Shown here in pieces: positions 7,192-61,921 of a DNA stretch of 64,000 nucleotides. Origin of the DNA: an uncultured Aestuariivirga sp. (GTDB lineage: Bacteria; Pseudomonadota; Alphaproteobacteria; Rhizobiales; Aestuariivirgaceae); contig CAXTTK010000013.1 of NCBI GenBank assembly GCA_964247245.1, positions 17,905 to 81,904 on the forward strand. Reading direction: 5' to 3'. The notes below the pieces were generated by a model. The model worked only from the letters and a program-made list of their open reading frames with translations. It had not been told where the DNA came from and made no database searches. A program made the translations under genes and the position numbers. How positions within the stretch are numbered: the stretch's first letter is position 1; every line of letters starts with the position of its first letter.

Positions 7192-7659
7192 ATGATGTCC
7201 ATTCTTCTCGACGCCGCCCTGCCCGCCATTGCGGCCCTGCCCTTAAATCAGCGCCTCATGGCCTTAGACCTTGGCACCAAAACCATCGGCGTGGCCACGG
7301 CAGATTACACGAGAGCGTTCGCCACCCCGCGCCACACCATTGAGCGCACCAAATTCACATCCGATGCGCAGTCTCTCATTAAGTTCGCCGCTGATGAAAA
7401 CATCGGCCTCATCGTGCTCGGCCTGCCGCTCAACATGGACGGCACCGAAGGCCCACGCTGCCAATCCACCAGAACCTTCGCCCGCAACTTCGGCAAACTC
7501 TCGCCGATGCCCATCATCTTCTGGGACGAACGCCTTTCAAGTTTTGAAGCAGATCAACAAATGATCGAAGCCGGACTGCGCCGCGACAAGCGCCAAGCCA
7601 ATATCGATAAGTTAGCTGCTGCAATTATATTGCAGAGTTTGTTGGATGCGTTGAGGTGA
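7192..7659 (+). CDS. ruvX: YqgF/RuvX putative pre-16S rRNA nuclease / Holliday junction resolvase-like
   Basis: 155 aa. Motifs LMALDLGTKTIGVA and VLGLPLNMDG. Confidence 0.85.
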   Translation: MMSILLDAALPAIAALPLNQRLMALDLGTKTIGVATADYTRAFATPRHTIERTKFTSDAQSLIKFAADENIGLIVLGLPLNMDGTEGPRCQSTRTFARNFGKLSPMPIIFWDERLSSFEADQQMIEAGLRRDKRQANIDKLAAAIILQSLLDALR

Positions 7660-7664
7660 AAAAG

Positions 7665-7829
7665 ATGAAGAAGCAATCTACTTCCGAAATCAAAGCCGCA
7701 TCACGTACGGATGCGGAAAGACACAGCTTCAATACCACCGAACTCTCGGCGGAAAAAATCAAGGCCGTTGCGGAAACCAAAATGGACAACCGCCACGATC
7801 ATCTCAATAAACTGTTTGAATTGAAATAG
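7665..7829 (+). CDS. Small hypothetical protein (54 aa), function unknown
   Basis: Hand-found ORF below the track cutoff, ATG at 7665 preceded by GAGGTG at 6-nt spacing. Sequence MKKQSTSEIKAASRTDAERHSFNTTELSAEKIKAVAETKMDNRHDHLNKLFELK, ending in TAG at 7827-7829. The same frame stays open for 47 more codons after the TAG. Confidence 0.3.
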   Translation: MKKQSTSEIKAASRTDAERHSFNTTELSAEKIKAVAETKMDNRHDHLNKLFELK

Positions 7830-7974
7830 GCTTTCACAAACCCAACGCCAGAGCGATATATTGTGTCAAACTACGCAGATATCTACCATGATGAATTTCG
7901 AGCAAAGCTAGAAGAATGTTACTGGGAGGGTACGAAGCATCAAGTGCAGAAGTGTGGATATTTTAAGAACTAAT

Positions 7975-8163
7975 TTAGTTCATTGACTGATGCGTTAGCT
8001 AAGTATATGGTTCCGCACACTCTTTACGTGTATATGAGTATGTACTCACGTCCGGCGTTTCGCTAGACGATTATTTTACTGCCTACTTTTATCGGCGGGA
8101 ATTAGTCTGAGCTTTCATTGGCTCAAATTTTCGCAAATAAAAGCTCAGACTAATTCCCACCTT
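7975..8163 (+). ncRNA. Candidate retron non-coding RNA (msr-msd) region; boundaries unresolved
   Basis: About 190 nt of non-coding, AT-rich, hairpin-rich DNA directly upstream of the effector-RT pair, which is the position expected for a retron ncRNA. Contains a TTAGC motif at 7994-7998, an imperfect hairpin at 8026-8051 and the perfect 19-bp hairpin at 8097-8158. No convincing a1/a2 pair was found by eye. Confidence 0.35.
8097..8158 (+). repeat. Perfect 19-bp inverted repeat with 24-nt loop (candidate msd stem or attenuator)
   Basis: GGGAATTAGTCTGAGCTTT (8097-8115) is the exact reverse complement of AAAGCTCAGACTAATTCCC (8140-8158). Two further pairs are possible after one mismatch. It ends 7 nt before the effector RBS GAGG. 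Confidence 0.9.
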
Positions 8164-9141
8164 TTGAGGTTTAGAGTGAAATTGAACGGATTGGCAGGAG
8201 AGTTCGTTAATGGACTTGAACTCTCCGGCTTTCGTTTAGGAAGGCCCAAGAAATTTATATTTCTGTGCGGTGGCGTGCTTGACAAGACAATTGCGAAACC
8301 ACCAGAAACGGCCAGAGAAGCATTTCTTAGAGAACTTCCAAATCGCGATATCTTTCATAATTATAACATAATTCTTGCGGAGGAGATTAACGCTTTCTAC
8401 CCTGATAGCCCTTATAGCAATACTAATCTGATTGATCTTGAAAAAGATATCGCCGAACTCTCCGATTCTGTTGTTCTTTTTTCTGAAGGTATTGGTTCGC
8501 TAGCGGAGCTTGGTGCATTTACTCAAATTCCTGAAATTGCGCTTCGGATGATTGTTATCATTCAGGAAATACACCACAATGCGAAATCATTTGTCCGTGA
8601 TGGTCCGATAAGAAAACTTGAACAATTAAGAAAGGACTCTGTACTTGTGTTCGACTGGAAAGTTGACACCAAAGTAGCGCCTTTTTTAGACCACTCCACT
8701 TTCAAACAAATATATTCTGACTTGTCGAAGTCAATTCTTGATCAACTCCAAGTATTTCCTGAGAAGGAAACAATAGAGCAAGTTAGTTTTGCACATAAGA
8801 CTTTTCTCGTATGCGCCTTGATCGATATCTGCGGAGCGTTGAAGTTCGAAGAAATTTCAACGAGTTTATCGACACTTGGACTGAATGTTGCTCAAGCAGA
8901 ATTGATGAGGATAATTTTTTGTGCAGAAAAGGTCGGCTGGATCAACGTACGAAAATATGGTCACACCAAATACTATTTTCCGAATTTTCACACTTCTGTT
9001 TGTGACTTTAAATACAATGCAAAAGCCAAACATCGTGATGCTGTAAGGTGGAAGGTTGATATACTAGAGTTTTGGAGCAACTCTGATAAATCTCGCTCCA
9101 AGCTCATATTGGAGAATGTTCGCAGAGAGTCAAAAACATGA
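8164..9141 (+). CDS. Retron effector candidate: nucleoside 2-deoxyribosyltransferase-like N-terminal domain + probable winged-helix C-terminal domain (St85/Sen2 RcaT-like architecture)
   Basis: 325-aa ORF from TTG 8164. The more likely start is GTG 8176, which follows GAGG at 6-nt spacing. Motifs FIFLCGG and SEGIGSLAELGAF (nt 8482-8520) resemble the NDT-family D/E-x-G-T-x-x-E-x-G core. The stop overlaps the RT ATG (ATGA at 9138-9141). AT-rich. Confidence 0.65.
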   Translation: MRFRVKLNGLAGEFVNGLELSGFRLGRPKKFIFLCGGVLDKTIAKPPETAREAFLRELPNRDIFHNYNIILAEEINAFYPDSPYSNTNLIDLEKDIAELSDSVVLFSEGIGSLAELGAFTQIPEIALRMIVIIQEIHHNAKSFVRDGPIRKLEQLRKDSVLVFDWKVDTKVAPFLDHSTFKQIYSDLSKSILDQLQVFPEKETIEQVSFAHKTFLVCALIDICGALKFEEISTSLSTLGLNVAQAELMRIIFCAEKVGWINVRKYGHTKYYFPNFHTSVCDFKYNAKAKHRDAVRWKVDILEFWSNSDKSRSKLILENVRRESKT

Positions 9142-10127
9142 GCGAACTCTTGAAAACACTTTCAGCGACTACGGGATTGTCCATTTCTGACATATTGAGA
9201 GTGGCAAGCAATGGACCTAACCGTTACAAAGTCTTTATGATTGAAAAGCGAAGTGGTGGATTACGGAAAATTGCACAACCTGCGAGAGAATTGAAACACA
9301 TTCAAAGGTCTTTGATAAAAATCCTAGAAAAACATCTGCCTGTGCATGATAGTGCAACGGCATATCGCATTGGAAAAAGCATTCGTGACAATGCCAGACC
9401 TCATCTCAGTAGCACTCACTTGTTGAAACTTGATTTTACAGATTTTTTTGGTTCAATTCTTGAACAAGATTTCACAGCACTTTGTATTCCAAAGTTAAGT
9501 TGGAACGAACCGACCGACATTGCATTATTGGTTGGTTTGCTTTTCTGGAAGGACAAGGAGCGGCAGGGGCTTAGACTTTCAATCGGCGCTCCGTCATCTC
9601 CGTTTTTATCCAACGCTATGCTCTTCTCGTTTGACGCCACAATCGCAGCTTATTGCGCTGCAAATGAAATCACTTACTCGAGATATGCTGACGACATAAC
9701 CTTCTCTTGCTTGTCAAATGAACGGTTACATGAGGTGTTAAACCATTTAACACTGATGCTTCAAACCATGAGCAATCCAAGATTAACATTGAATGAGCAT
9801 AAAACAGCATTCGTTTCAAAACGATTTGGTAGAAGAGTTACAGGCTTAACACTTTCTAATCAAGGTAGACTTTCCATAGGACGTGAAAGAAAGCGTCAAC
9901 TGCAAGCTGGAATTCACCACTTCATGTTGGGTAAGTTAAGCCAGGATGAAATCGAAAAACTCCGAGGGAACCTTGCATTTGCGCAATCTGTGGAAGCCAG
10001 CTTCTTGTTGTCAATGAAAGACAAATATGGCAACGAAGTTATTGAGCGACTTTTAAGAAGAAAAATCTCGCGCGATCCATTCTGGGAACATCTAAAAAGA
10101 AACCGTATCCCTCCACCTAAAGTATGA
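9138..10127 (+). CDS. Retron-type reverse transcriptase
   Basis: 329 aa. Motifs: YKVFMIEKRSGGLRKIAQP (RT1), DNARPH = NAxxH (nt 9390-9404), LKLDFTDFFGSI (RT3), IGAPSSPFLSN (RT4), YADD (nt 9684-9695), RRVTGL = VTG (nt 9837-9845). No maturase, endonuclease or other fused domains. Confidence 0.9.
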   Translation: MSELLKTLSATTGLSISDILRVASNGPNRYKVFMIEKRSGGLRKIAQPARELKHIQRSLIKILEKHLPVHDSATAYRIGKSIRDNARPHLSSTHLLKLDFTDFFGSILEQDFTALCIPKLSWNEPTDIALLVGLLFWKDKERQGLRLSIGAPSSPFLSNAMLFSFDATIAAYCAANEITYSRYADDITFSCLSNERLHEVLNHLTLMLQTMSNPRLTLNEHKTAFVSKRFGRRVTGLTLSNQGRLSIGRERKRQLQAGIHHFMLGKLSQDEIEKLRGNLAFAQSVEASFLLSMKDKYGNEVIERLLRRKISRDPFWEHLKRNRIPPPKV

Positions 10128-10160
10128 AATCAACAATATATTAGGTGACGTTTCGAACCA

Positions 10161-10192
10161 AAGCTGGATGCCAGCCTTCGCTGGCATGACGG
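10161..10192. repeat. Solo half-copy of the REP-like palindrome family
   Basis: AAGCTGGATGCCAGCCTTCGCTGGCATGACGG matches the right halves at 4589, 33203 and 39303. No partner left half lies nearby. Confidence 0.8.
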
Positions 10193-10288
10193 TTTAGCGG
10201 GGTGTTTCTAAACAGCAAATCCCCCGCTAACCAAACTTTCCCCCCACCCCTTGCACCCCGCCCCACTTCCCCCTATCACGCCCCTTTA

Positions 10289-25746: not shown

Positions 25747-26018
25747 GTTCAAATTTGAGATTTAAGGTGCCGGCTCGGGTTTATTGTAAACGAGGAGGCC
25801 ACTCAGTTACAGCCCGAGCCAGCGAGCCAACGAAATCAGGAGATGCGGCGGGCCTGACCCCGAAGGCTTTATTTACAGAAGCATTTTTGCTTCAGATAAG
25901 ATGCTTGAGGAACGGCTCTCGGTGCAGGAGCGCCGTTCCTCTGAGGTAATGTCCGGCGCCTTGGAGAAAGCTAACGGACGCATTCGAAATCATGTATAAG
26001 TTTATGCAACTTGGCGCA

Positions 26019-61400: not shown

Positions 61401-61921
61401 ATCAATCCGCCACGCACTGCAAAGTCGCCGCGATCAACAACCGTGCCACAGCGCGAATAGCCATTGTTGATGAGGAAGGCTTGCAGCACATCATCTTTGA
61501 TGCTTTGGCCGGGAACAGCTGTGAAGCTTCCACCTTCAATCAAGCTCTTTGGAACGACGCGCTGGAGTACCGCATTGATAGTAGTGAGCAGCAAGTAAGG
61601 CTTGGTTGCAGGTGTTATTAGTTCGGCCAAAACCGAAAGTCGTTTCGCTAAAATATCAGCCGACGGAGACACGCGGTCGTAGGGCAAGCAATCCCAAGCC
61701 GGAAAGCGTTTGATCTCCAAACTGGGTGCAAAAAATTTGATCTGTTCTTCAAGTTCAGACAAATGCTGATCGTCACGACAAACATGCACGAGCCCACGAT
61801 TGCCTGCGCCCACGGCAAGCTTGGGCAAAACTTGGGCATCATAGCCTTCAGGCAATGCACCAAGTTGAATGCGGCCGGGTCTAGCGAGACGCTGGATTGT
61901 TGTGTCGATAGGCGTGGTCAT
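58442..61921 (-). CDS. mfd: Transcription-repair coupling factor
   Basis: 1159 aa with helicase motifs GDVGFGKTEV and DEEQHFG plus the C-terminal TRCF domain. Confidence 0.95.
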   Translation of the reverse strand: MTTPIDTTIQRLARPGRIQLGALPEGYDAQVLPKLAVGAGNRGLVHVCRDDQHLSELEEQIKFFAPSLEIKRFPAWDCLPYDRVSPSADILAKRLSVLAELITPATKPYLLLTTINAVLQRVVPKSLIEGGSFTAVPGQSIKDDVLQAFLINNGYSRCGTVVDRGDFAVRGGLIDIFPPGAEQPVRLDFFGDTLESIRQFDAQSQRSTAQLKSLTLHPANEVLLNKNSIATFRTAYAEALGGIDLNDPLYESITNARIYQGMEHWLPLFHSELATLFDYVPDAVWSLSQSNTESMAARHDQVEEFYDARREAMGKQSFGAAPYKPLKPERLYLSETEWNQLCADRTILEISPFENPSRDAVSFSGKQGRSFAAERAEAGGNVYDAVRQHTEQLRKANKRTLISCWSDGSAERLSTILHDHGLAPLVIAKNWAEATKHEVGIVSLIVLPLEQGFETPEQAVISEQDILGDRLVRRARKAKKAADFLSELSSLSPGDLMVHVDHGIGRFEGLRTIEVQGAPHDCLLLIYAENTRLFLPVENLELLSRYGSDAENVQLDRLGGGAWQAKKAKLKQRIREIAGDLIKTAAARELKPGDVFNVPEGAFDEFCARFPYEETEDQLSAIEAVLEDLQKGRPMDRLVCGDVGFGKTEVAMRAAFVAAYAGKQVAIVVPTTLLSRQHYKNFVERFKGLPLRIAQASRLVGAKEIKLVKAGMEDGSVNIVIGTHALLADSVKFRDLGLMIVDEEQHFGVKHKERLKQMRANVHVLTLTATPIPRTLQLALSGVREMSLITTPPLDRLAVRTYISPFDPVTIREHLLREHFRGGQSFYVVPRITDLDEIAEFLREAIPEIKFRTAHGRMSPTELEDIMTGFYDRKFDVLLSTTIVESGLDISTANTMIIHRADMFGLAQLYQLRGRVGRSKQRAYALLTTQPNKKMTPDAERRLKVLQSLDSLGAGFNLASHDLDIRGSGNLLGEEQHGNIREVGFELYQSMLEDAVASMRSGGEELADDGAWSPSINIGTSVLIPETYVTDLQARLGLYRRLSDVQEQSDLDGFAAELHDRFGRKPEEVDHLLDIVSIKLLCRKANVAKVDAGPKGVTIEFRNGIFENPTALVQWIAGQGTLAKLRPDMKLVLTRDWPQAAQRLKGTRLLMQNLVKLAS

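Follow-up and report, generated by a model that had tools for sequence, protein, structure and literature searches.

A St85-family (type II-A1) retron between ruvX and pyrB in an uncultured Rhizobiales-like alphaproteobacterium

The locus and its genes

The window analysed here is a stretch of 64,000 nucleotides (nt) from an uncultured Aestuariivirga sp. (contig CAXTTK010000013.1, positions 17,905 to 81,904), and the element of interest lies between its ruvX and pyrB genes. Two plus-strand open reading frames (ORFs) are found there, 8164-9141 (325 amino acids, counted from TTG) and 9138-10127 (329 amino acids, from ATG), which overlap by an ATGA; the first encodes an effector resembling nucleoside 2-deoxyribosyltransferases (NDT), the second a reverse transcriptase (RT), and a structured non-coding RNA (ncRNA) precedes both. 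Together they very probably form an intact type II-A1 (Sen2/St85-family) retron, i.e. a tripartite toxin–antitoxin anti-phage module composed of an RNA, a toxin and an RT. An earlier inspection of the DNA, made from the letters alone and referred to below as the sequence-only reading, had described a two-gene retron module between ruvX and pyrB, with the ATGA overlap of its two ORFs; the overlap is confirmed, and the module is borne out by the finding that both proteins pass the NCBIfam St85 cut-offs and that relatives have empty sites at the same position. The locus is not a chance resemblance, because the RT and the effector match retron-specific profiles at 6e-113 and 1e-70, respectively. 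The protein-coding features are as follows.

8176-9141, plus strand: effector (toxin) gene, 321 amino acids when begun at GTG 8176, with TTG 8164 and TTG 8182 as other candidate starts.
8506-8508, plus strand: GAG codon of E115, the predicted catalytic glutamate, aligned with the catalytic E106 of the Ec86 effector.
9138-10127, plus strand: retron RT gene, 329 amino acids, in ATGA overlap with the effector stop codon.

The reverse transcriptase

The RT has the motifs that the sequence-only reading had assigned to it, all at the positions given there, namely NARPH as the NAxxH motif (residues 85-89, nt 9390-9404), YADD (residues 183-186, nt 9684-9695) and VTG (residues 234-236, nt 9837-9845), and its best profile matches are all models of retron RTs. 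Comparison with retron profiles, which that reading had proposed as a check, gave RT_II-A (PDLC02939) as the best PADLOC model at 375.2 bits (6.3e-113), followed by RT_I-A at 340.7 bits (1.9e-102), with the rest at 200 bits or below; retron_St85_RT of NCBIfam is matched at 321.9 bits against a curated cut-off of 235, and RVT_1 of Pfam at 1e-22. The best matches in the PDB are the retron RTs 9n69, Ec83 and Ec78 (e-64 to e-71, 220-244 bits), while in the same sequence search the Ec86 RT is matched far more weakly (121 bits, 6e-34).

The effector

The effector had been considered too divergent for more than short motifs to be recognised, a view that does not survive the profile searches: over the whole length of the protein the matches are very strong, at 9.9e-71 to PADLOC NDT_II-A, with nearly the entire profile covered, and at 222 bits to NCBIfam STM3845_fam, named ‘retron St85 family effector protein’, which has a cut-off of 100. 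The short motifs themselves had been read correctly, with FIFLCGG at residues 31-37 and SEGIGSLAELGAF at residues 107-119 (numbering of the 325-amino-acid ORF), and with E115 encoded by the GAG codon listed above. The local Pfam library gave no match for the effector because the library is old; the precomputed annotation of all effector homologues carries PF28093 (STM3845).

By sequence the effector matches that of Retron-Ec86 (2.9e-10), and E115 is aligned with E106, which chain 8qbl_G, from an entry titled ‘inactive effector (E106A)’, has replaced by Ala. E115 is invariant across 21 homologues. An AlphaFold2 model built on the homologue alignment has a mean predicted local distance difference test (pLDDT) value of 90.9 and a predicted template-modelling score (pTM) of 0.89, and the top three PDB matches of this model in Foldseek are chains of the Retron-Eco1 effector (8qbk_E at 5e-10, probability 1.0, full length). 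The NDT-family hydrolase DNPH1 is matched on the N-terminal domain, again with probability 1.0 (TMt 0.64). Further along the model, helices at 209-223, 228-237 and 244-256 are followed by strands at 260-265 and 268-273, so that residues 209-273 have, as modelled, the winged-helix topology of three helices and a beta-hairpin. The predicted structure thus supports the sequence-only reading of the effector as NDT-like in its N-terminal part, with a winged helix at the C-terminal end.

The msr–msd RNA

The order ncRNA, effector, RT, which had been likened to that of St85/Sen2-type retrons, holds, with a covarying msr–msd RNA lying upstream of the effector. The RNA had been placed across 7830-8163; it is indeed present, but at 8018-8178 with its promoter at 7983-8011, and 7830-7982 is not retron-specific. 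Its parts are listed below.

7983-8011, plus strand: promoter-like site found by a consensus scan, with -35 TTGACT (7983-7988), a 17-nt spacer and -10 TATGGT (8006-8011).
8018-8178, plus strand: msr–msd ncRNA, 161 nt; an unconstrained minimum-free-energy fold recovers all helices, and the covariance model scores 186 bits.
8018-8027, plus strand: a1 arm CACTCTTTAC; 8 of its 10 positions pair with a2, and the two in the centre are U-U mismatches.
8028, plus strand: candidate branching guanosine G8028 (priming 2'-OH), the 11th nucleotide of the RNA and directly 3' of a1.
8035-8048, plus strand: msr stem-loop 1 (UGAGU/ACUCA), in which 5 of 5 pairs change on both sides and 93.8% of cells are paired.
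8049-8069, plus strand: msr stem-loop 2, containing the invariant GGCGTTTCGCTAGAC (8054-8068), with 95.4% of cells paired.
8094-8161, plus strand: msd hairpin, template of the stem of the multicopy single-stranded DNA (msDNA), with a 19-bp perfect stem (8097-8115/8140-8158) and two outer and three inner pairs in addition.
8169-8178, plus strand: a2 arm GTTTAGAGTG, whose last three bases are the GTG start codon and whose 5' end is abutted by GAGG (8166-8169).

The contigs of effector homologues served as comparison loci for this RNA. One of them, L076, is the same locus at 98.8% identity, and L071, L072 and L073 represent a relative about 80% identical that has the retron at the same ruvX/pyrB site, while L074, L075 and L001 have effectors of 57%, 57% and 45% protein identity in other genomic contexts. 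A metagenome scan for GGCGTTTCGCTAGAC returned real copies only in L086 (the same contig as L001), L119, L147 and L184, the rest being mostly chance matches. In L119, L147 and L184 the msr core is shared, the msd stems are entirely different in sequence, and a1 and a2 are different yet complementary; 9 of 10 positions pair in L147 and 10 of 10 in L075, and L119, L184 and L001 have 7-8 perfect pairs. A common msr core accompanied by divergent msd stems and complementary a1/a2 arms is the classical retron pattern.

Five sequences were used to build a covariance model, R1, which in nearly all of 70 genome loci has a full-length match that reaches, or stops just short of, the effector gene. The share of paired cells in the R1 alignment is 92.3%, compared to 63.5% after shuffling and about 40% when the partners are slid; of the 48 pairs, 44 change on both sides. 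These counts are taken from a model-fitted alignment that leans towards the model's own structure. MAFFT alignments, in which msr stem-loop 1 and the variable msd stems fell out of register, were set aside for the covariance-model alignment. In the msd hairpin, each of the 25 pairs modelled has changes on both sides within the family, and compensatory changes are seen in L074 and L001. In Escherichia coli, R1 also finds an RNA upstream of the annotated effector and RT genes of a St85-family retron (L197 2260-2432, 54.9 bits, E 4e-13); this RNA includes the hairpin GUC-GGCG-UUU-CGC-GAC. The 15-mer of msr stem-loop 2 is invariant in all loci of the subclade and nearly so in E. coli L197, and by analogy with other retrons this stem-loop (8049-8069) is probably the element recognised by the RT. 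G8028 is likewise invariant, within a TTACG context, in all aligned loci and would, by the same analogy, be the branching guanosine.

The 5' boundary of the RNA is marked by a conserved block that starts at about 8016, and distant loci show nucleotide similarity to the window only from about 8011. TTGAC (7983-7987) is invariant in five loci of otherwise dissimilar upstream DNA, and 7983-8011 is read as a putative sigma-70-like promoter of the retron transcript, with a predicted start near 8018, the 5' end of a1. A first a1/a2 candidate (7844-7852/8051-8059) and a promoter-like site at 7833-7862 were dropped because distant relatives are dissimilar upstream of about 8011 and the covarying a1/a2 pair is 8018-8027/8169-8178. 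Rfam, searched with E-value and gathering thresholds, gave no retron ncRNA match; all it placed in the ncRNA region were models of plant and animal miRNA precursors, spuriously matched to the long msd hairpin.

Over 8041-8220, the ncRNA and the opening codons of the effector are 98-100% identical to L071, as against about 65-70% for ruvX and about 80-85% for the retron genes, which would reflect either strong purifying selection on the RNA or transfer of the retron after the lineages split. At fourfold sites, identity to the approximately 80% relative is 0.42 for ruvX (36 sites), 0.62 for the effector and 0.56 for the RT, figures that come from few sites and in which AT bias inflates chance identity. 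A second near-match to GGCGTTTCGCTAGAC, with two mismatches, occurs elsewhere in the window at 61879-61893 on the minus strand; it is probably due to chance, because the ncRNA covariance model found nothing there.

Classification and relationship to known retrons

Type II-A1 retrons combine an RT of clade 1 and an ncRNA of the IA/IIA1 type, both shared with type I-A, with an NDT-like effector that has a C-terminal DNA-binding domain, Sen2 (St85), Vch2 and Eco3 being examples (PMC7736814). The window locus has the features of retrons in general, i.e. NAxxH, VTG and YADD in the RT and an adjacent ncRNA with a1/a2 arms, a G after a1, msr loops and an msd hairpin, and it also has those particular to type II-A1: the two effector domains, an RT that falls in clade 1 by score ranking, and the plus-strand order ncRNA, effector, RT. 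The ncRNA is of the IA/IIA1 type as judged by our own subclade model, which finds the L197 RNA, rather than by Mestre's covariance model. Since every sequence-level feature of type II-A1 is present, the locus is assigned to that type; it is not type II-A3, because the RT is not Ec86-like, and it is not type I-A, because ATPase and HNH genes are absent.

The question raised by the sequence-only reading, whether this is a known subtype or a new variant of effector, is thereby answered in favour of the known subtype II-A1 (PMC7736814). The effector is not a new variant, because at least 70 species genomes (one genome per species), mostly of Alphaproteobacteria, have St85-family homologues of it, and most of these homologues have this same ncRNA upstream. 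Host genera among these 70 loci include Bradyrhizobium, Mesorhizobium, Devosia, Caulobacter, Rhizobium and Methylocystis, and for several of the homologues NCBI already uses the name ‘retron St85 family effector protein’; the window's own subclade of effectors (42-100% identity) is mostly metagenomic. This is an ordinary retron, recognised by standard NCBI and PADLOC models and common in its host class, and it adds one St85-family (II-A1) member from an uncultured Rhizobiales-like lineage, with little import beyond annotation. The covariation-supported map of the msr–msd RNA could serve the engineering of retron editors or better ncRNA models for alphaproteobacterial type II-A1 retrons.

The closest parallels are Sen2 (St85), Vch2/Vc81, Eco3/Ec73, Eco9 and Vmi1, which have the same order of msr–msd, effector and RT and the same ncRNA architecture, and with the Sen2/St85 group the locus shares the effector family STM3845_fam and the RT family retron_St85_RT, both matched above cut-off. 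The candidate branching G is at position 11 here, compared to position 12 in Vmi1 (PMC11701397). The locus stands apart from its type II-A1 relatives in the low identity of its effector to the enterobacterial and Vibrio ones found (about 26%) and in its Rhizobiales-like alphaproteobacterial host, and, unlike other retrons of the type, the window copy sits at ruvX/pyrB without an integrase, a prophage or a tRNA/dusA association.

Ec73 is carried on a P4-like satellite element. The E. coli St85-family retron of L197 (286-1855; TUM2805 plasmid record NZ_CP128951.1) lies beside psu and ogr/delta-like genes. To judge from these neighbours, it too is on a P4-like satellite element, a mode of carriage that differs from the integrase-less chromosomal slot in the window.

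Two further retron types are related in part. With Retron-Eco1 (Ec86, type II-A3) the locus shares a homologous effector, by sequence and by full-length fold, a conserved catalytic glutamate and the tripartite logic; Eco1 differs in having an RT of clade 9 and a different ncRNA type (PMC7736814), and the overall TM-score between the effectors, about 0.46, points to a different domain arrangement. Type I-A retrons (Eco7/Ec78 and Eco4/Ec83) provide the nearest solved RTs, and RT clade and ncRNA type are shared with them (PMC7736814), but they use as effectors a PtuA ATPase together with a PtuB HNH nuclease, and the window locus encodes neither.

Proposed mechanism and alternative explanations

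In Sen2 the effector, RcaT, serves as toxin, and the RT with mature msDNA is the antitoxin, the RT binding RcaT directly and specifically (10.1101/2020.06.22.160168). For Eco1, a summary (PMC12673091) describes the effector as an N-glycosidase that resides in RT–msDNA filaments and hydrolyses NAD(P)+, activated once a phage methylase modifies the msDNA. Vmi1, which is organised like Sen2, produces an msDNA of 85 nt with its branching G at position 12 (PMC11701397).

By analogy with these systems, the RT of the window locus would bind the msr hairpins and use the 2'-OH of G8028 to prime a copy of the msd that runs backwards from about 8168 to about 8080, giving a branched msDNA of about 85-90 nt, with the RNA template removed by host RNase H. 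The RT–msDNA complex would then bind the effector and hold it inactive until the msDNA is modified, bound or degraded by phage factors, which would set the effector free. The freed effector, through its N-glycosidase-type domain and E115, might attack NAD(P)+ or another nucleotide or nucleic-acid substrate, and growth arrest would precede the release of phage. The module as a whole was inserted, without a recognisable mobility gene, into the variable slot that extends from ruvX to the pyrB promoter.

Several points weigh against a working type II-A1 retron of this kind. The a1/a2 stem of the window has its two central mismatches as U-U where most relatives have U-A, so that priming could be less efficient. 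Identity of the effector is only about 26% to the St85-family effectors of enterobacteria and 17-20% to that of Eco1, and with values so low the protein may differ from these in substrate and trigger; in the retron literature consulted, moreover, the biochemical target of RcaT-type II-A1 effectors is not established. The placement of the RT in clade 1 is a ranking of profile and PDB scores and not a tree.

It is conceivable, though rather unlikely, that the retron is functional but serves chiefly as an addiction module or a stress-responsive toxin–antitoxin system rather than in phage defence. Sen2 was first characterised through its cold and anaerobic growth phenotypes, without phage (10.1101/2020.06.22.160168), no phage or other defence genes adjoin the window retron, according to the ORF list and Pfam scan, and the same hotspot in the relative L199 has a possible Phd/MazF-like toxin–antitoxin pair, judged from sub-threshold matches. 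Characterised retrons, including those of type II-A, protect against phage (PMC7736814; PMC12673091), and the two roles can coexist in a single system.

A decaying or non-functional remnant, with reading frames not yet closed but an RNA that has lost efficient priming and a locus heading for loss, is considered improbable. The two U-U mismatches in the middle of a1/a2, the GTG-to-GTT change in L076, which breaks the outermost pair and shifts the start codon, and the location in a hotspot with turnover of cargo could all be read in that way. Both ORFs are nevertheless of full length, with all catalytic motifs present; compared to the approximately 80% relative, conservation is 98-100% in the ncRNA, and the proteins are free of frameshifts at 83-84% identity, and an unopposed toxin would be counter-selected. 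The mismatches themselves are tolerated and not recent damage, because that same relative keeps both of them.

There is next to no case for a retron of type I-A (Septu-like, Ec78/Ec83-type) or for a hybrid. The score of PADLOC RT_I-A is not far below that of RT_II-A (340.7 against 375.2 bits) and the top PDB matches are type I-A RTs. Types I-A and II-A1 have the RT clade and the ncRNA in common and differ in effector (PMC7736814), and in the ruvX–pyrB gap no PtuA-type ATPase or HNH nuclease gene was found, the NDT-like effector being the sole partner of the RT. A non-retron RT system (group II intron, DRT/UG, Abi or DGR) whose neighbour gene is unrelated to it is hardly credible either, since the weak matches of the RT to group II intron and Drt2/3/4 profiles, which any RT would give, lie far under cut-off (group_II_RT_mat 50.1 against 300, Drt2 39.6 against 390, Drt3a 29.9 against 200, Drt4 24.8 against 450), NAxxH and VTG are present, the msr–msd RNA covaries and has an a1/a2 stem, and the neighbour is a family-specific effector.

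The effector start codon and its overlap with a2

The 325-amino-acid effector ORF of the sequence-only reading exists, but its start was probably set too far upstream: GTG 8176, or else TTG 8182, is more likely to be used than TTG 8164, which on sequence grounds is the least likely of the three. GTG 8176 is preceded by the Shine–Dalgarno-like GAGG at 8166-8169, and homologues of 84% and 57% identity are called from the same codon. In L076 the corresponding triplet (621-623) is GTT in place of the GTG at 8176-8178 of the window, which means that the GTG start is lost and the gene is called from the equivalent of TTG 8182, six nt downstream, and that the outermost a1/a2 pair is broken.

The juxtaposition of a2 and the effector start recurs across the family. 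The FxFLCGG motif could be placed in 51 related loci, and there it lies at a tightly fixed distance (median 75 nt) from the point where the ncRNA model ends on its 3' side. A candidate in-frame start codon falls between -6 and +8 nt of that point in 50 of the 51; the chance expectation for such a codon is about 21%, with 3/64 for each of five in-frame codons. In the window, the start of the effector abuts or overlaps a2, compared to a position 51 nt downstream in E. coli L197.

One tentative possibility, towards the doubtful end, is that in the alphaproteobacterial branch of type II-A1 the folding of the ncRNA, or its processing from the operon transcript, gates translation of the toxin and, through the ATGA overlap, of the RT. 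If true, this would add a safeguard at the RNA level to the protein-level RT–msDNA antitoxin, and the family-wide juxtaposition opens an inexpensive way to test for translational control of the toxin in a retron. For type VI retrons, a 2025 preprint describes how translation of the toxin is repressed by structure (10.1101/2025.10.22.683967); Vpa2, of that type, offers a conceptual parallel only, in that the ribosome-binding region or start codon of its toxin lies inside the retron RNA structure, and it differs in retron type, in having a small-peptide effector and in producing no msDNA before infection. A point counter to gating at the start codon is that RcaT levels of Sen2 are unaltered in antitoxin mutants (10.1101/2020.06.22.160168).

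The ruvX/pyrB insertion site

The retron is flanked by RuvX (PF03652, 1e-40) and PyrB (OTCace_N and OTCace) in the Pfam scan, with gatC, gatA and a GNAT gene upstream of ruvX and pyrC and plsY downstream of pyrB. The module had been called richer in AT than its flanks from hand counts, and a GC profile agrees, with values of 0.38-0.43 over about 7600-10150 compared to 0.50-0.59 on either side. The only ORFs in the gap between ruvX and pyrB are one of 57 amino acids, the NDT-like effector and the RT. The inserted segment and the corresponding gaps in relatives are as follows.

7654-10246, no strand: variable inserted segment of the window, of low GC (about 0.40), holding the small ORF, a spacer and the retron; these are also the limits of the ruvX/pyrB gap in the window.
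5508-8021 in L198: ruvX/pyrB gap.
5466-7889 in L199: ruvX/pyrB gap.
5466-5496 in L200: ruvX/pyrB gap.
5460-5525 in L202: ruvX/pyrB gap.

Relatives of RuvX were gathered by homology search, an exact-sequence look-up of the window RuvX having given no match. In L200, L202 and L203 (RuvX 69-81% identical) the site is empty, pyrB following directly after ruvX, and in L198 and L199 (RuvX 88-89% identical) the gap holds other cargo, consisting in L198 of a DUF559 gene and a 413-amino-acid protein without a family (only faint LmuB/DruC matches) and in L199 of five small genes, DUF559 among them. PADLOC and Pfam scans of this alternative cargo gave sub-threshold matches only. As noted above, L076 and L071-L073 have the retron at this site. 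Homology between the window and the empty site of L200 ends at 7653 and resumes at 10247, whereas with L198 and L199 it resumes at 10220-10222, and the retron therefore lies within a variable segment of about 2.6 kb that runs from the ruvX stop codon to the pyrB leader. Because the ruvX–pyrB site of related genomes is empty or has other cargo, this is a genuine insertion in a hotspot, and from the sequences compared the junction behaves as a place of cargo-swapping in the lineage, the evidence for which is a by-product of the analysis. Neither direct or inverted repeats flanking the inserted segment nor an integrase, tRNA or other mobility gene at the insertion was found, so that a mechanism of insertion cannot be proposed.

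Other features of the segment and the window

A lysine-rich ORF of 57 amino acids at 7656-7829 on the plus strand overlaps the ruvX stop codon (GTGA) and is kept in the relative L071. It resembles, at 55% identity, the C-terminal part of a 96-amino-acid ORF at the left edge of the L199 cargo, which has a sub-threshold match to the Phd/YefM antitoxin and is followed by an ORF with a sub-threshold PemK/MazF-like match. The 57-amino-acid ORF is not specific to the retron, and may be an antitoxin remnant of the hotspot rather than of the retron.

One further feature lies past the RT stop codon.

10161-10195, plus strand: hairpin with inner stem AUGCCAGC/GCUGGCAU; its fold has z = -1.45, which is not significant, and it has no U tract.

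This hairpin was not called in a terminator scan, and a role as terminator is possible but weak, and held with low confidence. Beyond it, the longest pyrB ORF begins at GTG 10202, yet PyrB homologues have 317-320 amino acids, and a C-rich stretch at about 10220-10288 is conserved in genomes with and without the insertion; the pyrB start is probably ATG 10289, with its leader or promoter left intact downstream of the insertion.

Elsewhere in the window, at 25764-25870 on the minus strand, Rfam identifies an EcpR1/Atu_C6 small RNA at 65.2 bits, above the gathering score. This match and the RuvX relatives of 62-67% identity, which come from ‘Rhizobiales bacterium’ and Aestuariivirga sp., are consistent with a host of Rhizobiales type.

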